64,000 nt of DNA from a bacterium (GCA_963669175.1 OY769902.1:5120001-5184000), one strand, 5' to 3'; numbered from the stretch's first letter, positions 1,735 through 52,862 are shown. Numbers and translations: made by a program. The notes: generated from the sequence alone by a model not told the origin.

Positions 1735-2458
1735 TCCACCTCGAAGAGGTGACACTTGAATAGCGCGGTGCGTAAGCGCCGGGAGAAAGGTGTCCCCCCA
1801 TTTTCGATCCCGAAGGGATCGCACAAAATCCATTCACAAACTCTTTCAACAGATACCTGCACTTTTGTCTCAATGAATGATCTATCCCAAAGTGCGTCCC
1901 CTTCAGGGTCGATTGATCATTGGCGACATTATGTTCCCGGCGCTTACGCACCACGCTATCCCGAATATTTCACCAATGCAATTTCAAATGTGGTATTTGA
2001 TGGAATGGCCAGTGCAAGAACCACGGCAGTGGTTCCCTGGATTAGCCCACCGTCCAGCGCCGTCTGTTTGGCACTCACGGTGGGAATAGGATGTACGCTA
2101 CTTGCCAACCCCGGCAGCGGGTTGCCTAAATATTATCACTGTATACTTATGATAATTATTAGGATACTCCTTCCGGAGTAAATATATGGTGCGCATTATC
2201 TCCCCGGGTAGCCGCCAAACTGACGGCAGCTGCCCGGGACTAATACAGGTTGCCCCTGCCGGGGCGGTTGCCGATACTCAGCCTCATTTTGCCAGCGAAA
2301 CAGGGAATAGGCACGCAAAGGGATACCGGAGCAAACTGTACCCATAAAAAAGCTGTATGAATCAGTTGTATTGTGCTGATATGAAATGTGTTAAGATGAT
2401 TATCCATGTTTCGTTCGTGAAATATCCGGGCTATTCAAGTGGCCCACCTTCGGTGGAC
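1735..2458. repeat. Inverted pair of ~50-bp REP-like units; the right unit is split by the MITE
   Basis: 1735-1784 contains CACTTGAATAGCGCGGTGCGTAAGCGCCGGGA; its inverse is rebuilt by joining 1935-1959 to 2435-2458; intact copy at 46629-46677. Confidence 0.8.
1960..2430. mobile_element. MITE-A copy 1 (471 bp, TIR CCCGAATATTTCA, 4-bp TSD CTAT)
   Basis: Ends CCCGAATATTTCAC / GTGAAATATCCGGG; CTAT at 1956-1959 and 2431-2434; two more copies in the window. Confidence 0.9.
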
Positions 2459-36434: not shown

Positions 36435-36628
36435 GGCGCTTCTCCTTGTGTTGGAAAAATGGAATACTGCTAAGATAGCAGTTCCAACACGACTTGATGC
36501 GCCTGTCGTTTAACATAGGAACTCGATTTTATTCCGTCATCATGGAGATTGCCGGGAAAAGGGGACAGGATCCTTTTCCTCACCCTCAAACAGAATACTC
36601 TTGCTGAATCTGTGGAACAGGAAACTAA

Positions 36629-37098
36629 CCCGAATATTTCATGAACGGAACATGGATATTCATCTTAACACAGTTCATATCAACACAATACAACTGATTC
36701 ATACAGCATTTTTCAGGGGACAGTTTGCTCCGGTATCCCTTTGCGTGTCTATTCCCTGTTTCGCTGGCAAAATAGGCTGAGAATCGGCAACCGCCCCGGC
36801 AGGGGCAACCTGTATTAGCCCCGGGCAGCCGCCGTCAGTTTGGCGGCTACCCGGGGAGATAATGCGCACCATATATTTACTCCGGAAGGAGTAACCTGAT
36901 AATTATCAAAAGTATACAGTGGAAATATTCAGGCAACCCGCTGCCGGGGTTGGCAAGTAGCGTACATCCTATTCCCACCGTGAGCGCCAAACAGACGGCG
37001 CTGGACGGTGGGCTAATACAGAGAACCACTGCCGTGGTTCTTGTACTGGCCATTCCATCAAATACCAAATTTGAAATTGCATTGGTGAAATATTCGGG
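36629..37098. mobile_element. MITE-A copy 2 (470 bp, inverted relative to copy 1, TSD CTAA)
   Basis: CCCGAATATTTCA / TGAAATATTCGGG; CTAA at 36625-36628 and 37099-37102. Confidence 0.9.
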
Positions 37099-37155
37099 CT
37101 AACCCCTTTTCCATGTAATTCCTGCCTACTCGCAAGAAAAAGGGGAATTACTGAG

Positions 37156-44519: not shown

Positions 44520-45845
44520 TCAGGCAATATGCTCCACAGCGTCTGCCAGATACTCATATCGTGGCGTCAGTTTCCCCTGGTGTGCGATGACAGCGCTCCG
44601 GAACTCAAGCGGAAGTTCCGGCTCCAGTTCCTCGAACGGCTTGCTGAAATCTGCCGCAAGCAATGCCGGGATATAGGGCGAAAGCATATCGCCGAATGCT
44701 ATCGTTGATTCCCTCGGAATTTCAGCGGGTAGAATATCAACCGTCATCATCTGCATTCCCGGCGCTTCAAACCCATCCGTATCTTCACGCGTTTCCGGAT
44801 TGATGACATAAACCGGATTCTCGGGCAATGTCGGCCTTACGGTGCATTCAATGGACCCGAGCGGATCGCAGGTGATGTCGCCAATAACAGTAAGCTTAGG
44901 CAGAGCCTCCTGCAAAAACAACGCAGACAGGTCATCCCAGGTGATCAGGCGCGGGTATTTGTCCAGCCAATATATCGCATTGACCAGCATGGTCAGATGT
45001 GGCAGATATTGGGTGAAGACAGAACGATAGTTGCCGGGATTGTCATAATAGTCCTGAAGTTCAAAAGTTGCGCCATCTTCCACTGGCTCAACCATGTCTT
45101 CTTCCTTGAATACGACAAGGTAAATGGTGTCGGCATCGAGAGTGCCCTGCGCCGAACGCTCCCTCAACTGTGCAGCCGTGATCTCTTCCGGCTCCAGCAG
45201 GTTGAAGATTTCCTGCGCGCCCTTGGACACACTTCCGTAACCTGCTATACCGCATACCATCGGCCCCAGTCCTGACGGCAGGCCAGTCTTTTTAATCTCA
45301 GCGCCAATCTGTTTGATGGATGTTTTGGCGTCTTCCAGCGAATCATAGGTAATCGCCTGCTGCAGGGATGCCAGTGCAGTGTCGTGCCCCTGTGCTTTCC
45401 AACGCTGTCCCAGGCTCCACAACGTGTTCACCATCCCGGCCAATCCCGCCTGCACACCGAAGAAAATGGTTCTGCGGCCTCGTTCGTCCGCGACGACTTC
45501 GTAGTCCAGCAAGGTGATCTTTTCATCCAGCACACGCTTCAGCAGGGGCATGTTGTACGGCTGCGCCTTGATCGTATGTGAGAAAAACAGATGCGGACGT
45601 CCGCTTTGAAAACGCTCCAACGGAATCTCTTTTACCCCTGCCATGAAATCAACCGGCGGCAACTCTTCCACCACCGTCGCACCGGCATCGAGATACTCCC
45701 GGTCCTTAAAAATCCGGTGGGTGGATTTTTCCACCAGAAACTGGAGATCGTGTTTTGCTGCAAGCTCTTTGACGTGCTGTGGCGCTAACGGTGCACGCCG
45801 TTCCTGTTCGGTTTTATCTTCTCGCCGGATTCCGATGGTGCGCAT
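44520..45845 (-). CDS. Lysine-ketoglutarate reductase / saccharopine dehydrogenase (AlaDH/PNT fold)
   Basis: 'IGIRREDK..ERRAPLAP', 'FFSHTIKAQPYN', 'IGDITCD'. Confidence 0.88.
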   Translation of the reverse strand: MRTIGIRREDKTEQERRAPLAPQHVKELAAKHDLQFLVEKSTHRIFKDREYLDAGATVVEELPPVDFMAGVKEIPLERFQSGRPHLFFSHTIKAQPYNMPLLKRVLDEKITLLDYEVVADERGRRTIFFGVQAGLAGMVNTLWSLGQRWKAQGHDTALASLQQAITYDSLEDAKTSIKQIGAEIKKTGLPSGLGPMVCGIAGYGSVSKGAQEIFNLLEPEEITAAQLRERSAQGTLDADTIYLVVFKEEDMVEPVEDGATFELQDYYDNPGNYRSVFTQYLPHLTMLVNAIYWLDKYPRLITWDDLSALFLQEALPKLTVIGDITCDPLGSIECTVRPTLPENPVYVINPETREDTDGFEAPGMQMMTVDILPAEIPRESTIAFGDMLSPYIPALLAADFSKPFEELEPELPLEFRSAVIAHQGKLTPRYEYLADAVEHIA

Positions 45846-45975
45846 GAGGCCAATTCCTTACTCTATCAGGTTGTTTCTTCACACTCTTTGTGCCGTGAGC
45901 ATGGTAGCAAATTGGACCTGCAAGAGCAAATCATTTTGCCCTGGAGCATTCTGAGAGCGCCCTGGAAGAAAATAG

Positions 45976-46446
45976 CCCGAACATTTCATGAACGAAACAT
46001 GGACAACCATCTTAACACATTTCATATCAACACATTACAACTGATTCATACAGCATTTTTCAGGGGACAGTTTACGCCGGTATCCCTTTGCGTGTCTATT
46101 TCCCGTTTCGCTGGCAAGATGAGGCTGAGTATCGGCAACCGCCCCGGCAGGGGCAACCTGTATTAGCCCCGGGCAGCCGCCGTCAGTTTGGCGGCTACCC
46201 TGGGAGATAATGCGCACCATATATTTACTCCGGAAGGAGTAAACTAATAATAACCATGAGTATACAGTGGTAGTATTTAGGCAACCCGCTGCCGGGGTTG
46301 GCAAGTAGCGTACATCCTATTCCCACCGTGAGCGCCAAACAGACGGCGCTGGACGGTGGGCTAATTCAGGGAACCACTGCCGTGGTTCTTGTACTGGCCG
46401 TTCCATCAAGTATCACATTGAAATTGCCATTGGTGAAATCTTCGGG
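45976..46446. mobile_element. MITE-A copy 3 (471 bp, TSD ATAG)
   Basis: CCCGAACATTTCA / TGAAATCTTCGGG; ATAG at 45972-45975 and 46447-46450. Confidence 0.9.
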
Positions 46447-46556
46447 ATAGCGCCTCCTCGTTGAGTTTCAGCAAGCGTAGCCGTGATCAAACTGAAAACA
46501 ACAACAGGCTGAAAGTAATGACAGTTCAGGTTGCTCAGCAGTTCCGATTAAGAACA

Positions 46557-46943
46557 ACGACAGGATTGATCAGGGTTCTTGCAGGTATACTTGCAAACAG
46601 CAACAGGATAGATCAGGGGTCTTTGCAGGTCCACCGAAGGTGGGCCACTTGAATAGCGCGGCTTGTAAGCGCCGGGAATACGATCTTACACCACAAGGGA
46701 AATCGGGACTGCTACTCCATTTCGCCAGATGGAATGCTACTACCAGTTGACGCAGTTCGATAAATCTCCATGATTATCTATTTCCGTGATAACGTATAGC
46801 GAAATAGGTAGCTGTCCCAGGATTTTCCGGATAATCTCTCGCAAAAGCAGGCGAAAAATCCGGTACAGTCACCTTTTCACATACCCTGGCTTGACTGTCT
46901 TGCATTTGTGGAAATGAAAAGGTGACAGTCCCATTTTTCGCCC
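46557..46943 (+). repeat. Repeat cluster: short direct repeat, intact REP unit (46629-46677), composite A+B repeat copy 3 (46698-46943)
   Basis: CAGGATWGATCAGGG..TTGCAGGT twice; similarity to 1735-1784 and 37156-37420. Confidence 0.8.
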
Positions 46944-47096
46944 TCACTGTAGCACACATGAACATTATCCGGGATTTACTCCGATTTTGCTTCAATAAAC
47001 CTTTTCATAACAAAGCTCCCTCCTCAGTATCCTTTCGAGAGGAATTCACCCTGCCTATATTCCCTTACAACTTTTGCCAAGACAAAGGATTTCACC

Positions 47097-47669
47097 ATGT
47101 CCGACAAGTTTATCTATATCGTATCCGGGTTACCTCGCAGTGGCACCTCCATGATGATGCGCATGATGGAAGCGGGTGGCGTTCCAATCATGTCTGACGG
47201 CGAACGTGTGGCGGACATCGACAACCCACGTGGCTACTACGAGCTGGAGAAGGTCAAGCAGATCAAGGAAGATGCGTCCTGGCTGCCTGAATCACAAGGC
47301 AAAGTCTTCAAAATGATCTCCATGCTGTTACTGGACCTGCCCTCGACCTTCCAGTACAAGATTCTCTTCATGAAACGTGAGATCAGTGAAGTGCTGGCCT
47401 CGGAACGGAAAATGCTGGAACGCCGTGGCAAGGAGCGTGATGTGGATGACGCGACCATGGCGGCCATGTTCGGTAAACATTTGACCCATGTGAAAAGCTG
47501 GATGGATCAACAGCCGAACGTCGACTGGCTGGAAATGGACTACAACGCCATGCTGCAAGACCCGCAACCTTGGCTTGATAAACTGCCTGGCTTCCTGCAA
47601 ATGGATGTGGATGTCGCCGCCATGGCGAAAATCGTAGAACCCGCACTGTATCGGAATCGGGGGAAGTAG
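47097..47669 (+). CDS. Sulfotransferase family protein
   Basis: PAPS-binding loop 'VSGLPRSGTSMMM', 'DNPRGYYE'. Confidence 0.88.
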   Translation: MSDKFIYIVSGLPRSGTSMMMRMMEAGGVPIMSDGERVADIDNPRGYYELEKVKQIKEDASWLPESQGKVFKMISMLLLDLPSTFQYKILFMKREISEVLASERKMLERRGKERDVDDATMAAMFGKHLTHVKSWMDQQPNVDWLEMDYNAMLQDPQPWLDKLPGFLQMDVDVAAMAKIVEPALYRNRGK

Positions 47670-47673
47670 ATTA

Positions 47674-48072
47674 CTATTGTTTGCCAGCAATTTTTAAACA
47701 ATATTCCCTTATTTCATCCTCAAGGTTTCCTCTAAACACTGTTCTTACATTATCAAAATCTTTTACTAATTTACTAAGATCTTTACTTGTGTCCTGAGAG
47801 TAAAAATAGATCGGTATTGTACTTAAATGATCCTCATCACGTATTTTCTCTATATAATAATCTCCATTCTTTGGCTCCATATGATAATCCATAATTATTG
47901 CTGCATATGTAAAATACATTAGCTTTTGTTTAATATCGTCTAATTCTCCATTTTCTACATGATGCACTTGTAATTCTATATCATAATCCTTTAATATTAT
48001 TTCTAAATTTTCTTTTGCGCCATTTACCCATGCTGCCATATCGTCTATCCACAGCAATATTATCGTCTTCAT
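47674..48072 (-). CDS. Single-domain response regulator receiver
   Basis: 'LWIDD', phospho-Asp 'IMDY', 'IYFYS'; ATGA overlap with the kinase gene. Confidence 0.85.
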   Translation of the reverse strand: MKTIILLWIDDMAAWVNGAKENLEIILKDYDIELQVHHVENGELDDIKQKLMYFTYAAIIMDYHMEPKNGDYYIEKIRDEDHLSTIPIYFYSQDTSKDLSKLVKDFDNVRTVFRGNLEDEIREYCLKIAGKQ

Positions 48073-50333
48073 GTTTTCTCCTTAATTAATATTTTAAATG
48101 TTACGCCTTCTGTTTCGTTTTTCTTCACCGCAATTGATGCCGCCATACTCTCTACTATTCTCTTCACATGATACAAACCAACTCCTGACCCGTCTGTTGT
48201 TGTATAACCCATGTTATAAATATTTTTAATTTCCTCTTCTTTTATTCCCACTCCATCATCCTTAAATGATATTTCTATATCACCTTTTTCTGTTTTTTGT
48301 GTCTTTATTACCATCACCTTTGCTTTTGCTTTTCTAGCATTTGACACCATATTGTCAATTATAATGTTTATTTCTATTGGTTTTACTTCTATTTCGTACT
48401 TATCCTTATTGTCATCCACATACTTTATCCGCATTTTTTTATCATTTATTGTTGGTATTATATTTTGGACATATTCCTTAATATAATTATTAATATCGAT
48501 TATTGTTGCTTCTGTTTTCAAATTAAACCTTGCTTTTGTTGCAAATATGGCTATGTTTGATATTTTTTTTACCTCTAATCCTATGATGTCTATTATATTC
48601 CATAGTTCTTCATTACTTATTGGTATTTTTCTTTGTGTACGTAGTGATATTCCTTTTAATTTATTTTCTATTGTTCCTGCATAAATACCTACATGATGTA
48701 ACAGGCTAATCATTTCTTTGTAATCTGATGTATTTATTGATTTTAAAAATAAATTTTCAGATATTGTTGTTTTTAATTCTCTTGTCGCCTCTTGTGCTTT
48801 TTTCTCGGCTTCTTTTGCTAATCTGTCAGCCTCTTCCTTCGCCTTCCTCAAATATTCTACTTTTTCTATTGCTTTCTCAGTCACACCGAGTAAATTTTCA
48901 TCACCTATTTCTTTTGCTATTGCCTTTAAATTCTTTACTACACTATTAGCGCTATTTATTTGGCTTGCCTCAATAATATCGATAAAATTTTCAGGCACCT
49001 GAAAATCCACGATATTTTCTGAGTTTGTCAATGTCGCTAACAAATCTATTACTCTTGATGATAATGGTGTATTATTATCATCTTCTATACTGAAGCCCCA
49101 TTGTTGAACATCAACAACATACTTTTCAAGCATTTCTATTGCTTGGAATACAAATTTCGTAAGTTCATCATAATATTCATTCTTAATTAAGCCATCTCCC
49201 CTACTAGACGTTTCAACAAAATGATTATTGCCTGCTTCTGTTATCTCTACCCTACCTATTATTTCTCCTGTTCCAAGTCGGCTTCTTTGCTTTCTGCTTT
49301 TTCTTTTATCTATACCCATTGGATCACTATTGGGCTCACCATACGGATAGACCCTAAAACCGTTTTTGTAAAGAAATAAATTCCCATATAGTCTTGATGC
49401 CATACCCATCTGTTTTGTAAAAGTATATTTTGCCTTTCGACTAAGATAATAAAGAGTTATTTTAATATTATGCAATAATTCATATTCACTATGTTGCTTT
49501 ATTTTATATATTAATGTTCCCCCATCAACTAGAGTTGTCACAATAATATCATTATTGTTTTTTATTCTTGAACATATTTTCGTTGTTTTTAATCCTAATT
49601 GTTCAAATATGAAATTTTTTACCTTTCCGTTTACTTTATCCTTATAATCATCAAATTCATTATCTTTATCCAATTCATCTGAAACCCTTATTATTATGAT
49701 AAAATTCTCATCGTTATCATTTATTGGATTTATTAATTTAGAAAGCGAATCTTTGAGTTTTAATAATTTATCCCTAGACCATTTACTCCTTAATTCTGAT
49801 ATTTCCAGTACAGTACCATATGGCCGAGGATATTTTCTTGCTCCGTTTTCCATATACTCCACTGGAATATCCACAAATTCCTTTTGTGCATCCACTTCAA
49901 AGTTTTCCCAATTAGTACGTAATATTTGAGTTTTTGACGTACCTCTTTTTGTTGTTTCTAGATATAACTTCTTTCCTAATCGGTCACAAGAAAATCTACC
50001 AATACCTTTTGCTCCTGCAAAAGGTCTATTTGCAAATATATTATCTCGATAATCATAATTATTATCTTCTGTCCCATCTTTTTTTGCCGAATAAGCAACA
50101 AATAACCACTTCTTAGAAATATCTTCCCGACTCATTCCTTTACCATTATCACTTATAATAATTCTCGCTTTATTTGTATTTAAATATTTGAATTCTATAA
50201 TAACTTCGGAGGCATGAGCATCAAAGGAGTTTTTTACAAGCTCAAATATTGCAACATAATCATCTGTAATAAGATCACGCCCAATTATATCTTTTAAGGC
50301 TGAACTAATTCTATATTGAAGATTTTCACTCAC
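48069..50333 (-). CDS. MORC/MutL-like GHKL ATPase fused to a C-terminal histidine kinase
   Basis: N-terminal 'ELVKNSFDA', 'DNGKGM', 'GAKGIGRFS'; coiled coil; 'LLHHV', 'DNMVSNA', 'DDGVGI', 'GSGVGL'; GTG 50333 after GAGGAG. Confidence 0.88.
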   Translation of the reverse strand: MSENLQYRISSALKDIIGRDLITDDYVAIFELVKNSFDAHASEVIIEFKYLNTNKARIIISDNGKGMSREDISKKWLFVAYSAKKDGTEDNNYDYRDNIFANRPFAGAKGIGRFSCDRLGKKLYLETTKRGTSKTQILRTNWENFEVDAQKEFVDIPVEYMENGARKYPRPYGTVLEISELRSKWSRDKLLKLKDSLSKLINPINDNDENFIIIIRVSDELDKDNEFDDYKDKVNGKVKNFIFEQLGLKTTKICSRIKNNNDIIVTTLVDGGTLIYKIKQHSEYELLHNIKITLYYLSRKAKYTFTKQMGMASRLYGNLFLYKNGFRVYPYGEPNSDPMGIDKRKSRKQRSRLGTGEIIGRVEITEAGNNHFVETSSRGDGLIKNEYYDELTKFVFQAIEMLEKYVVDVQQWGFSIEDDNNTPLSSRVIDLLATLTNSENIVDFQVPENFIDIIEASQINSANSVVKNLKAIAKEIGDENLLGVTEKAIEKVEYLRKAKEEADRLAKEAEKKAQEATRELKTTISENLFLKSINTSDYKEMISLLHHVGIYAGTIENKLKGISLRTQRKIPISNEELWNIIDIIGLEVKKISNIAIFATKARFNLKTEATIIDINNYIKEYVQNIIPTINDKKMRIKYVDDNKDKYEIEVKPIEINIIIDNMVSNARKAKAKVMVIKTQKTEKGDIEISFKDDGVGIKEEEIKNIYNMGYTTTDGSGVGLYHVKRIVESMAASIAVKKNETEGVTFKILIKEKT

Positions 50334-51561
50334 AGAAACACTCCTCAAATATTATGCCACTTTGTTCAGCAAATAAAGGCGGAATTGCATTCCCTACTTG
50401 AGAATACCTTGGAACTGACATTTTCCTATTTTCTCCGCCAGTAGTGTATGTGCCCTTAAATTCATACCAATCGTTAAAAGATTGAATACGTGCATGCTCA
50501 CGAACTGTTAATATCCGCGGCTCTGAATAATGTATATAATCATCCGGCAATGTCGTTATCGTTGGCGCTTGACAATTTCTTGCAAGCGGAATGATTGTAT
50601 GTTTCTTAATATTGAGTTTTTCTTTTAATCTCCTTGATACAGTTCTATTTTTTTCAGCCTCAAGAAGGATGAGTTTAAGTTTTCTTACGGTATTAGGTCT
50701 ATGCTGCGCAAAACGATGACTATCAGGAATGATATTATCATAATCATGCCGTAATAATTTCTGATAATTACTAGAAGGTAAATTATATAATCCAGCATAA
50801 AAAGATTTTGAATCTGGACAACTTACAATATTTTGTTTCACTAGATCCGATATTGCATCTTGAAGTGTGTTTCTGACACCAATATTCTTACCTTCTAAGA
50901 AAGAATATTTGTTCTCCTCCAATAGCTCAAAAAATGAGGCTGGCGAGTAGTTAATTTTCCTATCCTTTCTAACGCCAACTAAAATAAATCTTGTCCTTTT
51001 CTGTGGGATTCCAAATTCCGAAAAGTTTACTAATTTTCCATATACTTCATAACCAAAATAACCATGCTTTGGGGAACTACGTGCAAGCAACTTTTGGACA
51101 TATTCGGAATATATCCGACCTTTTAATTTGTTTTTATCAAATTTTAACGTAAATCCTCTTACATTCTCAAAGAATATTACTTTTGGCTGAACAAGTCTAA
51201 TAAATTTAATGTAAGAGTGAATCAATTGATTTCTTTTATCACTTTCATCGCGCCGTCCTGCTGTGGAAAATCCTTGGCAAGGTGGGCCTCCAGCAACTAA
51301 ATCAATTTTCCCACGCAATTCCCGTAACTCACTAGAAAAATGTGATATAACATAGTTAATGTCAAGCGATGTTTGTGGCAGCCAATCTGGCCAAATGAAA
51401 TGATTTCGTCGTTCTATTAAATTGAACCTGAGGGTTTCAAATGCTTCAGCATTTTTTTCAAGCGCAAAAACACCATCCCATCGACCTGTGTTATACAGCC
51501 CTAAGGATAATCCCCCACAACCTGCAAAAAGGTCTATGTACTTTGGTTTGAATTTTGTCAT
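50326..51561 (-). CDS. DNA (cytosine-5) methyltransferase
   Basis: Motifs I 'DLFAGCGG', IV 'GGPPCQGFS', VI 'ENV', VIII 'QKRTR', IX 'REHARIQSF', X 'GNAIP'. Confidence 0.96.
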   Translation of the reverse strand: MTKFKPKYIDLFAGCGGLSLGLYNTGRWDGVFALEKNAEAFETLRFNLIERRNHFIWPDWLPQTSLDINYVISHFSSELRELRGKIDLVAGGPPCQGFSTAGRRDESDKRNQLIHSYIKFIRLVQPKVIFFENVRGFTLKFDKNKLKGRIYSEYVQKLLARSSPKHGYFGYEVYGKLVNFSEFGIPQKRTRFILVGVRKDRKINYSPASFFELLEENKYSFLEGKNIGVRNTLQDAISDLVKQNIVSCPDSKSFYAGLYNLPSSNYQKLLRHDYDNIIPDSHRFAQHRPNTVRKLKLILLEAEKNRTVSRRLKEKLNIKKHTIIPLARNCQAPTITTLPDDYIHYSEPRILTVREHARIQSFNDWYEFKGTYTTGGENRKMSVPRYSQVGNAIPPLFAEQSGIIFEECFCE

Positions 51562-51637
51562 CGCGAAGGCACTATGTTAAGCTTCTTTGTTGATCATCCC
51601 CTTAAACTATTAATAATACAGACAATAAGCACACCAT

Positions 51638-51663
51638 ACAATTCTTCAAATTTGAAGAATTGT
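51638..51663. promoter_or_regulatory. Perfect 26-bp palindrome upstream of the methyltransferase operon
   Basis: ACAATTCTTCAAA|TTTGAAGAATTGT. Confidence 0.6.
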
Positions 51664-51915
51664 TAAAACATGAAGGTTTCGCTGATCAAATTATGACATT
51701 TTCAAGATTCCTGTATTTTCCTTCCGCGAAGCAATATACAGGTTACTGCTATATTATACAATATGGATAAGTAAAAAATACTTTGAAACACCTTCTGTAG
51801 CTCCTAAACTGAATATTTTGTCCGAGTCATTACAATACTTCTACCCTTGCCTTGGTGATAATTCCAAGATAATCCTGCCTCAGAATTAGCAATTCTAAAT
51901 GTGTGTTATAAACGA

Positions 51916-51950
51916 AAACCGGGACAGCCCCAAAGGGACAGTCCCGTTTT
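51916..51950. terminator. Terminator hairpin after the DUF3078 gene
   Basis: AAAACCGGGAC..GTCCCGTTTT. Confidence 0.65.
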
Positions 51951-51974
51951 CTTTGTCAAATACAACCCGCCAAA

Positions 51975-52862
51975 TCAGAAACTATAGGTAAACCCGAGCG
52001 AAACGGTTTCCTTGAAGCGTCCGGCCAGGTCGATTTCCTTGTCGTACAGCCACTTGGCGTACAGGTTCACCATAATGTATTTGGTCACGTTCATGGTGAA
52101 GGTCGACTCCAGGCTCATGTCCACTTCTTTCCAGTAGCTGTTCGCGGCGTCGTCTTCCTCGGAATAGTAGAAGGCTTTGTACACGATCAGCTTGCTGTCC
52201 ATTTTGATTTTTTCCGGGACAATCGGCGTGGTCATTTCGGACACGTATTCAAGGCCGGAATCGTTGCCGGTCCACCTGCCACGTTTGCCGGTAGTTTCAT
52301 CCATCAGGAAATTATGGTCCACGTGCTGACGGAAGCCCAGGCCAAGACGATGAATCCAGGTACGGCCTTCCTTGTTCAGCCAAACATCACGCGCAATACC
52401 AACCGCTTCCGAGTAAGTCACCGGGTTGACATAAATGTCTTCTTCACCACGCGAGTCCACAAACTGCGTCAGGATACGTCCACTGACAAACGGATCGACT
52501 ACCCAACCGTGGGTCAAGCGTAAAACCGACTCAAAGTCGATCAGGTCATCCGACTTGATCGGTTCGGACCAGTTGCGTTCTTCGATCGTCTGGTTCTGGG
52601 TCTGTCCGAATTTCAGCTTTAAAGTGTTGCGTGAATTGAACAGCTCGCTGAGTTGCTTCTCGGCAATGCTGTTCAGGGTGAAGGTCCAGGCAAATGACCC
52701 GGCCTCGTCGGTGTCCCAGTTGTCTGAATAGGCGTTCTGGGTCTGTGTCAGGTTAATGTCCGTAGCGAGCTGCCAGCCACCGGGATTGGTGTCCTGGGCG
52801 CTGCTGATAATCGGGAATACAAATGCAAACAAAAGAACGAAAAAGAGTACCGTGCGCTTCAT
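51975..52862 (-). CDS. DUF3078-like outer-membrane beta-barrel protein
   Basis: Signal peptide, 'QNAYSDNW', 'KSDDLID', C-terminal 'LGFTYSF'. Confidence 0.8.
   Translation of the reverse strand: MKRTVLFFVLLFAFVFPIISSAQDTNPGGWQLATDINLTQTQNAYSDNWDTDEAGSFAWTFTLNSIAEKQLSELFNSRNTLKLKFGQTQNQTIEERNWSEPIKSDDLIDFESVLRLTHGWVVDPFVSGRILTQFVDSRGEEDIYVNPVTYSEAVGIARDVWLNKEGRTWIHRLGLGFRQHVDHNFLMDETTGKRGRWTGNDSGLEYVSEMTTPIVPEKIKMDSKLIVYKAFYYSEEDDAANSYWKEVDMSLESTFTMNVTKYIMVNLYAKWLYDKEIDLAGRFKETVSLGFTYSF

Follow-up and report, generated by a model that had tools for sequence, protein, structure and literature searches.

Operons that join a DNA methylase to a histidine kinase (HK)-like protein and a receiver have been described before. 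An in silico study published in 2021 in Genome Biol Evol reported 644 regions in which a Response_reg_2 protein and a C5 methylase are next to an HK-like protein with HATPase_c_3, HEF_HK and HATPase_c domains, noted that HNH_2 and Vsr genes often neighbour the HEF_HK regions, and proposed in its Discussion a signalling control of restriction-modification (R-M) systems (PMC8011034). The Ambrosia cluster comprises an XRE regulator, an N6 methylase, a kinase/HSP90-like ATPase, a receiver joined to a winged helix-turn-helix (receiver-wHTH) and a type IV HNH protein; it protects P. aeruginosa against two phage groups, requires all five genes, is induced upon infection and loses its defence with the receiver substitution D60A (bioRxiv 10.1101/2025.09.30.679545). 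In Detocs, a soluble kinase senses infection and phosphotransfer activates a receiver-fused effector, with the lone receiver DtcB as the proposed buffer for stray phosphate (bioRxiv 10.1101/2023.01.24.525353). Here, we analyzed a 64,000-nt stretch of bacterial DNA (GCA_963669175.1 OY769902.1:5120001-5184000; hereafter the window, to whose positions all coordinates refer) that carries a three-gene cassette related to these systems at 47674-51900.

The cassette encodes a C5 cytosine DNA methyltransferase, a soluble fusion of a GHKL/S5 ATPase with a histidine kinase, and a bare receiver. We are highly confident of the identity of this three-gene core and of its family placement: judged by sequence similarity, its proteins form a distant sister family of the HEF_HK/Response_reg_2 modules with the same gene order. 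Domain content and analogous systems suggest that this methylase-linked kinase-receiver family probably has a defence-type function, and we lean, with less assurance, towards seeing the window copy as a minimal form within such a defence phosphorelay family, one without an effector. A preliminary description, made from the window's sequence alone, had regarded such a system as mechanistically uncharacterised. That claim needs narrowing, since the architecture itself was published in silico in 2021 (PMC8011034) and the related Ambrosia has been shown to be defensive; what stands as new is the separate sister family and its bare-receiver, nuclease-less form.

ORF calling revealed three overlapping open reading frames (ORFs) on the minus strand that fill 47674-51561. 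The GC content of 47674-51900 was 0.320, compared with 0.519 and 0.520 in the flanking 10 kb on each side. In consecutive 400-nt intervals it fell on the receiver side from 0.532 (47200-47599) to 0.325 (47600-47999) and was back to 0.520 by 52000-52399 on the methylase side, each edge lying inside one or two such intervals. The methylase and kinase ORFs overlap by 8 nt if the kinase starts at GTG or by 23 nt if it starts at TTG, and the kinase and receiver ORFs overlap by 4 nt. A convergent sulfotransferase ORF (47097..47669; PF00685 match 1.1e-8) adjoins the island, and the receiver stop codon starts 4 nt past its stop. The measurements bear out the low-GC island, the overlapping genes and the abrupt edge near the sulfotransferase that had been noted in the preliminary description. 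As that description had also stated, the island 47674-51900 contains no integrase, Vsr or endonuclease; besides the three genes it has no further ORF of at least 60 aa, and no direct or inverted repeats of note flank its borders. Neither Vsr (PF03852) nor HNH_2 (PF13391) was matched in the whole window genome, in a search that detected its positive controls.

The cassette is a horizontally acquired, foreign operon, because its GC content differs from that of its surroundings (0.32 vs 0.52), because its DNA had no match in 16 related genomes except for one 250-nt stretch in G032, because a search of the same-genus genome (92% complete) gave no copy of the kinase gene, and because its nearest neighbours in the kinase tree belong to the Bacteroidota. 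The genes flanking the island lie on different contigs in that same-genus genome, and in the window genome the kinase is single-copy. G032, which belongs to the same family and a different genus, has a 43%-identical cassette of the fused-receiver type described below (motif RNTLAH), which points to independent acquisition.

The central protein (48069..50348, minus strand; assigned by ORF calling, Pfam and AlphaFold2) has 759 aa when read from TTG 50348. A GTG at 50333, preceded by AGGAG, yields a 754-aa form that is 100% identical to a protein-database entry, and this is probably the true start. Pfam matched PF13589 (HATPase_c_3; 1.1e-26) at aa 32-159 and PF02518 (HATPase_c; 6.9e-24) at aa 658-757. 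An AlphaFold2 model, built on 111 relatives with a mean predicted local distance difference test score (pLDDT) of 81.8, was compared with 48,161 Protein Data Bank (PDB) representatives using VIA-align; aa 13-426 matched the ATPase modules of MORC2, SMCHD1 and MutL, with MORC3 also matched, and aa 539-759 matched DHp-CA kinases. In a PDB profile search, the N-terminus of the family profile aligned with PMS1 and MutL, and positions 531-756 aligned with the whole DHp and CA regions of HK853 (3e-16) and ZraS (8.5e-18).

These comparisons divide the protein into five parts, all given on the minus strand. The N-terminal GHKL (Bergerat) ATPase domain (aa 13-200; 49749..50312), which is assigned from PF13589, the PMS1/MutL alignments, VIA-align and its invariant columns, keeps E36, N40, D43, D67, G69, G71 and A111/G112/K114-R118 invariant across the 111 sequences, with A113 at 90% or more. 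It is followed by an S5-like transducer domain (aa 201-426; 49071..49748) with the family-conserved motif YKNGFR.YPYGEP..D, and by a small alpha/beta linker with a long coiled-coil helix (aa 427-538; 48735..49070), for which DSSP analysis of the model gave helices at 427-441, 455-481 and 484-534 and no family match was found. The DHp helical hairpin (aa 539-605; 48534..48734) carries the H-box LLHHVG, whose H551 (codon 48696-48698) is invariant in the 111 relatives and is followed by H552 rather than by an acidic residue; Pfam HisKA-type models did not match the protein. The CA (catalytic ATP-binding) domain (aa 614-759; 48072..48509) contains the N, G1 and G2 boxes (N666/N670, D697/G699/G701 and G720/G722/G724), of which N670 and the three G2 glycines are invariant in the same relatives, and N666 and the G1 residues reach at least 90%. 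None of the three window proteins shows a transmembrane segment, no 19-residue span exceeding a Kyte-Doolittle value of 1.6 (maximum 1.39). The preliminary description of a protein with two ATP-binding modules and no transmembrane segment thus agrees with the Pfam matches, the model and the hydropathy.

We also used the model to look for a hidden nuclease, as had been proposed, and none was found: as modeled, the protein consists wholly of GHKL and S5, linker and coiled coil, DHp and CA, with no unassigned domain of nuclease size, and a nuclease within it is ruled out on that basis. The best NCBIfam match was to the BbrUII/HgiDII family (NF050001), in which a GHKL-type protein is likewise paired with a C5 methylase. 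Identity with this enzyme was rejected: the match joins aa 34-220 to positions 25-198 of a 659-position profile, so that the similarity is confined to the GHKL domain, and scores 78 bits against a cut-off of 550 bits, whereas the C-terminal part of the enzyme has no counterpart in the window protein.

The methylase (411 aa; 50326..51561, minus strand) matched PF00145 (3.3e-51) and TIGR00675 (2.8e-41), with a predicted catalytic Cys95 in a PPCQ motif (codon 51277-51279, minus strand). PDB sequence matches were bacterial C5 methyltransferases, DNMT1, M.HaeIII and M.HhaI, and PADLOC matches were MTase_II (6.2e-76) as well as the DruM and DrmMII types. It is the sole PF00145 match in the 5.45-Mb genome. 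The receiver (132 aa; 47674..48072, minus strand) has D10, D11, D62 (the predicted phospho-acceptor; codon 47887-47889, minus strand) and S92, with R114 at the position usually occupied by Lys in receivers. Its only Pfam match was PF00072 at 21 bits, below the cut-off of 30.2; its clade relatives score 27-32 bits. At 132 aa, with Pfam finding neither a DNA-binding nor any other output domain, it is the receiver without output that had been recognized from the sequence. All three genes are intact and full length, with their catalytic residues kept. A histidine kinase and a receiver are a textbook pair.

The window proteins resemble the published HEF_HK modules in that the central protein is soluble, with an N-terminal HATPase_c_3, a DHp-like hairpin and a C-terminal HATPase_c, and that a C5 methylase gene lies directly upstream on the same strand and a receiver gene directly downstream (PMC8011034). 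However, the defining models, PF19191 (HEF_HK DHp) and PF19192 (Response_reg_2), did not match the window proteins even at E 10 and had no match anywhere in the window genome; matches at about 1e-27 did occur in 2 of the 79 genomes from the phylum. A true HEF_HK member, G041, encodes a methylase, a 995-aa HK-like protein and a 590-aa Response_reg_2 protein (133 bits to PF19192). The window kinase is colinear with this member but distant from it, with 28% identity in the GHKL domain (6e-13), a shared middle segment 'Y..G.R..PYG' (3e-5) and a CA domain match of 2e-4. It is also shorter by about 240 aa (759 vs 995 aa), its H-box reads H-H-[VI]-G in the family whereas that of HEF_HK has His followed by an acidic residue (PMC8011034), and its partner is a 132-aa canonical-type REC protein instead of the 590-aa Response_reg_2 protein.

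To place the cassette within its own family, we collected relatives of the window kinase. The protein database contained 119 with 47-65% identity, of which 117 had both ATPase domains, and at least 589 relatives were found among the 600 pattern matches listed from species-representative genomes. From the latter, 80 loci were retained, and the kinase ORF was called in 78. A C5 methylase homologue abuts the kinase gene upstream in 67 of the 78, lies one gene upstream in 6 and 1.4-1.5 kb downstream in 3; the other 2 have no upstream sequence. The 67 abutting methylases are orthologues 44-67% identical to that of the window, apart from one at 33%. Furthermore, 37 relatives were found on IMG/VR viral contigs, 18 of them full length, and a metagenome scan added 1 relative only.

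A kinase tree was built with FastTree from 73 cassettes with kinases of at least 700 aa, the window included; supports are Shimodaira-Hasegawa (SH)-like only. The gene after the kinase encodes a receiver with a C-terminal domain in 48 cassettes (276-315 aa, C-terminal domain about 180 aa), a lone receiver in 12 (124-141 aa) and a third form in 10, and is unclear in 3. The lone-receiver cassettes fall into two clades, with supports of 100 and 99, and both are nested in a clade of 49 rows (support 97) that also holds a mostly fused-receiver clade beside them. Fused forms occur on deep branches as well, in Bacteroidota, Planctomycetota, Acidobacteriota, Chloroflexota, Campylobacterota and Bathyarchaeota. 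Because the lone-receiver clades nest beside fused forms, which also hold deep branches, the bare-receiver form looks derived. The window falls in a 6-row clade (support 100) together with L002, L003, L005, L022 and L074.

The domain of about 180 aa fused to most receivers is the commonest candidate output. It carries the motif R-N-x-x-[A/S]-H in 47 of 48 cassettes (regular-expression search), and among 133 diverse representatives R245 and H250 are invariant, N246 and A249 reach at least 90%, and an upstream M-R-G motif is also conserved. The domain family has 1,189 representatives at E ≤0.001 in a library clustered at 50%. In a structure model of a fused receiver the domain is all-alpha, with R-N-x-x-A-H closing a helix, ahead of the loop that leads to the last one. 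In HEPN RNases, which are known from abortive-infection and R-M contexts, an Rx4-6H motif with a polar residue after the R lies where helix 3 of a four-helix core ends (PMC3710099); the domain of the relatives, which the window lacks, shares the Rx4H spacing, the polar residue and the helix-end position. We therefore tentatively regard it as a likely HEPN-like RNase. Whole-model fold searches of the fused receiver (Foldseek and VIA-align) returned lists filled by the receiver domain, and in a profile search of 1.84 billion proteins the best 150 matches were close receiver-fused relatives, with no bridge to named HEPN proteins. Our literature search found no paper on a receiver-HEPN fusion in this kinase context, and in what PMC3710099 presents such a fusion with a kinase is undescribed.

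The lone-receiver cassettes bring other outputs. Pfam identified an HpaII-type methylase with an RE_HpaII endonuclease ahead of the kinase in L044, L051, L070 and L080, and a 735-760-aa methylase with an MvaI/BcnI endonuclease (MvaI_BcnI) in L001 and L004. In L002, L003, L005, L022 and L074, a methylase of the window type abuts the kinase, and L005 and L074 have an HNH or HNH_2 gene directly after the receiver. A DNA endonuclease gene is thus present in 8 of the 12 lone-receiver cassettes (4 RE_HpaII, 2 MvaI_BcnI and 2 HNH/HNH_2), and the window, L002, L003 and L022 make up the 4 nuclease-less ones. As a type II R-M system, the window methylase would be expected beside a cognate restriction endonuclease; none adjoins it, whereas 6 of the 12 lone-receiver cassettes have one. 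The window genome has no homologue of the HEPN-like domain or of the HNH protein of L074. The preliminary description had allowed that homologous loci always carrying an extra nuclease would make the cassette a truncated known system, and this is nearly what we found: 47 of 48 fused receivers have the HEPN-like motif and 8 of 12 lone-receiver cassettes have a nuclease gene. Since most homologous loci carry an effector, the window resembles a minimal or truncated version.

Whether the window copy is then a decaying remnant of a four-gene or fused-effector cassette, which has lost its nuclease or RNase and in which the orphan methylase alone keeps a role while the kinase and receiver are being lost, can be judged from the same clade. 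The island stops exactly at the receiver stop, 4 nt from the convergent host gene. Of the 6 cassettes in the closest subclade, 2 have an HNH gene after the receiver, and its presence flips within sister pairs (L074 vs L022 and L005 vs L003). The terminal branch of the window is also longer, at 0.62, than those of its five clade neighbours (0.28-0.41). However, none of the three ORFs is truncated or lacks a catalytic residue, and lone-receiver kinases form large conserved clades, with the 119 database proteins mentioned above nearly all retaining both ATPase domains. We consider a remnant unlikely.

A regulatory module, in which the ATPase-kinase and lone receiver tune the methylase or an R-M partner through the timing or gating of methylation or through expression, appears equally unlikely. 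It would agree with the signalling control of R-M systems suggested in PMC8011034 and with Ambrosia, whose genes are infection-induced and whose authors propose a control role for the receiver-wHTH protein (bioRxiv 10.1101/2025.09.30.679545). It is also favoured by 6 of the 12 lone-receiver cassettes, in which the kinase-receiver pair is joined to a classical R-M pair of the HpaII or MvaI/BcnI type, and by the four nuclease-less ones, which retain all three genes intact. However, the window receiver is without an output domain, DNA-binding or other, and the commonest form in the family fuses the receiver to a probable RNase and not to a regulator. Receivers with 46-48% identity adjoin methylases whose identity is only about 30%, and this speaks against a specific contact between receiver and methylase. 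In general, direct contact of the kinase or receiver with the methylase is unlikely, because the kinase-receiver pair accompanies unrelated methylases.

For the defence-type phosphorelay that we prefer, the following course can be proposed. The methylase would mark the host's own DNA. The MORC/MutL-like ATPase module would take the place of a sensor domain, acting as an ATP-driven dimerising clamp that reacts to DNA or an infection cue, possibly target sites that lack modification. Clamp closure would be passed through the coiled coil to the DHp hairpin, the CA domain would autophosphorylate H551, and the phosphoryl group would move from H551 to D62 of the receiver, as the conserved residues and general knowledge of such families suggest. 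In most relatives, the phosphorylated receiver may then activate the fused HEPN-like RNase and cause abortive infection; in the lone-receiver relatives, the HpaII, MvaI/BcnI or HNH endonucleases of the operon would take its place. In the window, the relay would end at the bare receiver, which would serve as a phosphate sink or act on an unlinked partner, and the cassette would provide methylation with probably little or no killing output. The receivers with a probable RNase domain and the HpaII, MvaI/BcnI and HNH endonucleases of the relatives, together with the precedent of Ambrosia (bioRxiv 10.1101/2025.09.30.679545), support an R-M-linked defence phosphorelay.

Several points weigh against this reading. 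For methylation sensing, a kinase module of this kind accompanies unrelated methylases, namely the HpaII type (about 30% identity), the 735-760-aa type and the N6 enzyme of Ambrosia; phage grown on the Ambrosia methylase alone gains no protection and remains sensitive, and the authors favour transcriptional control (bioRxiv 10.1101/2025.09.30.679545). For the effector, Pfam HEPN models matched only 3 of 23 and 3 of 133 members of the C-terminal domain, all below threshold (the scan of 133 gave 2 HEPN_Swt1, 1 Abi_2 and 1 HEPN_RES_NTD1, all weak), and hhalign against four bona fide HEPN_MAE_28990 proteins placed the motifs in register with a probability of 2.7% in each of two comparisons. A PDB profile search with this domain gave a best E of 0.34 and no family, and an Atlas search gave no named family. 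In PADLOC-DB 2.0.0, searched as the preliminary description had suggested, neither the kinase nor the receiver has a model: these two proteins matched 0 families at E 0.1, and a match was obtained for the methylase only. The island is surrounded by housekeeping-type genes (sulfotransferase, DUF3078, AraC-like, glycosyltransferase and MutS2) and not by a defence island. Finally, the three-gene core may work alone, because the window genes are intact and four independent cassettes are nuclease-less.

The earlier proposal of a methylation-sensing defence phosphorelay therefore divides into two parts. An R-M-linked, defence-type relay remains the best available reading, while a clamp that senses unmethylated DNA is hypothetical; the kinase's association with unrelated methylases fits a sensing of DNA or of an infection cue. 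It is rather doubtful that the nuclease-free lone-receiver cassettes (the window, L002, L003 and L022) are working circuits instead of wrecks, with a clamp that reads DNA methylation and a His-Asp transfer to the bare receiver that resets the clamp or signals to a host target. If they were, bacteria would have a relay for epigenetic sensing or DNA silencing, with a protective or regulatory effect that involves no cutting. The same four cassettes bear on a further idea, that the clamp is itself the effector: the MORC-like module, timed or reset by the kinase and receiver, would entrap or compact incoming unmethylated DNA and leave it uncut. The ATPase module does match MORC2, MORC3 and SMCHD1, which are chromatin-compacting ATPases, and the nuclease-less core is kept in 4 of 12 lone-receiver cassettes. 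However, most relatives have a separate effector and the idea is pure analogy, and we consider it quite improbable.

Comparison with the other known systems places the window cassette apart from each of them. It resembles Ambrosia in gene content, since both clusters combine a methylase with a kinase/HSP90-like ATPase and a receiver, and its close relatives L005 and L074 also place an HNH gene after the receiver. It differs in having three genes, a C5 instead of an N6-adenine methylase, a bare receiver without wHTH, no XRE ORF in the window and no HNH_2 in the genome (bioRxiv 10.1101/2025.09.30.679545). No Ambrosia-type operon was present among four dual-GHKL kinase operons inspected from 400 gammaproteobacterial genomes; a C5 methylase lies beside the kinase in three of them, with variable downstream genes, and L156 has none adjacent. 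Among the ORFs examined in L156 there was no methylase; in this locus (G472), a second, 520-aa HATPase_c_3 protein (L156:11132-12694) lies 3 kb past the dual-GHKL kinase, with an ankyrin-repeat gene between them. The likeness to Detocs is one of principle, a kinase-receiver relay in which DtcB-like buffering would be a possible role for the window receiver; Detocs differs in its sensor, in having no methylase and in its PNP ATP-nucleosidase effector, and it has buffer and effector receivers where the window has only the bare one (bioRxiv 10.1101/2023.01.24.525353). As in the MORC/paraMORC systems, the window has a GHKL and S5 module with intact motifs beside a cytosine methylase, and Vsr and HNH occur in related loci. 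However, paraMORCs carry or accompany nucleases and helicases, whereas the C-terminal partner here is a DHp-CA kinase and the island has neither; the 2008 Biol Direct MORC text makes no mention of a histidine-kinase or receiver fusion (PMC2292703).

If the family works as proposed, it would represent R-M logic rewired through a phosphorelay, with a MutL/MORC-type DNA ATPase as the kinase input and an output that can be exchanged among a probable RNase, type II or HNH nucleases and no effector at all. Bacterial MORC relatives would thereby be connected with two-component signalling and abortive infection, and the family could offer a tractable model for GHKL clamps that report on DNA. The window copy would be a natural output-less version, which could serve as a control or hint at a separate function of the three-gene core. 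For the window genome the consequence is modest: a foreign cassette is the only source of C5 methylase, and no Vsr repair partner is present.

Other features of the relatives were also observed. Vsr, HhH-GPD glycosylase and metallophosphatase genes recur near lone-receiver and related cassettes. HhH-GPD glycosylase genes lie directly past the receiver in three loci (L033:10171-10881, L035:5158-5823 and L003:9715-10377, minus strand), and may be repair partners for 5-methylcytosine deamination that replace Vsr; calcineurin-like metallophosphatase genes, likewise directly past the receiver, are the second downstream genes in three others (L006, L023 and L065). The 735-760-aa C5 methylases (L001:3529-5811 and L004:3599-5806) have an N-terminal Arm-DNA-bind_5 domain, and the MvaI/BcnI-type endonucleases of the same loci, which have an extra N-terminal part of about 160 aa, precede the kinase-receiver pair with them. 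In the third cassette form (L009, L010, L034, L056, L058, L060, L061, L064, L071 and L079), the receiver has 222-248 aa; it contains an insert and is prolonged at its C-terminus by about 100 aa in which the RNxxAH motif is absent. It is followed by a conserved gene for 220-250 aa with no Pfam or NCBIfam match, which is a possible candidate effector; none was called in L079. Some kinases of the lone-receiver clade, about 850 aa long (P0086, P0090 and others), have at the N-terminus an additional conserved domain of some 100 aa that has no annotation.

Several kinases group across taxonomic boundaries. Those of L048 (Wandonia) and L050 (Flavobacterium aerium) are near-identical across families (branch lengths 0.0015 and 0.014), L006 (Aliarcobacter) and L023 (Paceibacterota) are sisters from different phyla, and L059 and L069 come from archaeal metagenome-assembled genomes (Bathyarchaeota). 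These near-identical, sister and archaeal kinases indicate recent and wide horizontal transfer of the cassette, or else binning artefacts. One relative is on a 315-kb Stenotrophomonas rhizophila plasmid (L092; CP031730.1, record 261395-274627), where a 711-aa dual-GHKL kinase follows a C5 methylase and a TnsA gene lies 2 kb away; no receiver is annotated in the 1.3-kb gap past the kinase. The protein, which is 33% identical to the window protein across the whole ATPase module, had been considered as a restriction enzyme and was rejected as such, being another dual-GHKL kinase.

Upstream of the methylase, a 340-nt spacer contains the AT-rich, non-coding cassette leader (51562..51900, minus strand; GC 0.333), whose largest ORF is at most 36 aa and in which a promoter is presumed. 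Promoter-like matches in it were at chance level (23 seen vs 22.2 expected), as were terminator-like sites at the island borders, and Rfam gave 0 matches in 45800-52100. A hairpin at 51933-51919 (minus strand), directly past the stop of the DUF3078 gene, marks the host side of the island border. Outside the island, a dispersed repeat of about 475 bp occurs in the window at 45973-46450, at about 36621-37107 (plus strand) and at about 1954-2435 (minus strand). It has at least 17 copies in the genome with 92-96% identity, no long ORF, no Rfam match and several GC-rich internal hairpins, and its ends are 13-nt terminal inverted repeats, CCCGAATATTTCA ... TGAAATATTCGGG. The repeat looks like a miniature inverted-repeat transposable element (MITE), and its 110-nt core has about 15 occurrences at about 80% in the same-genus genome.

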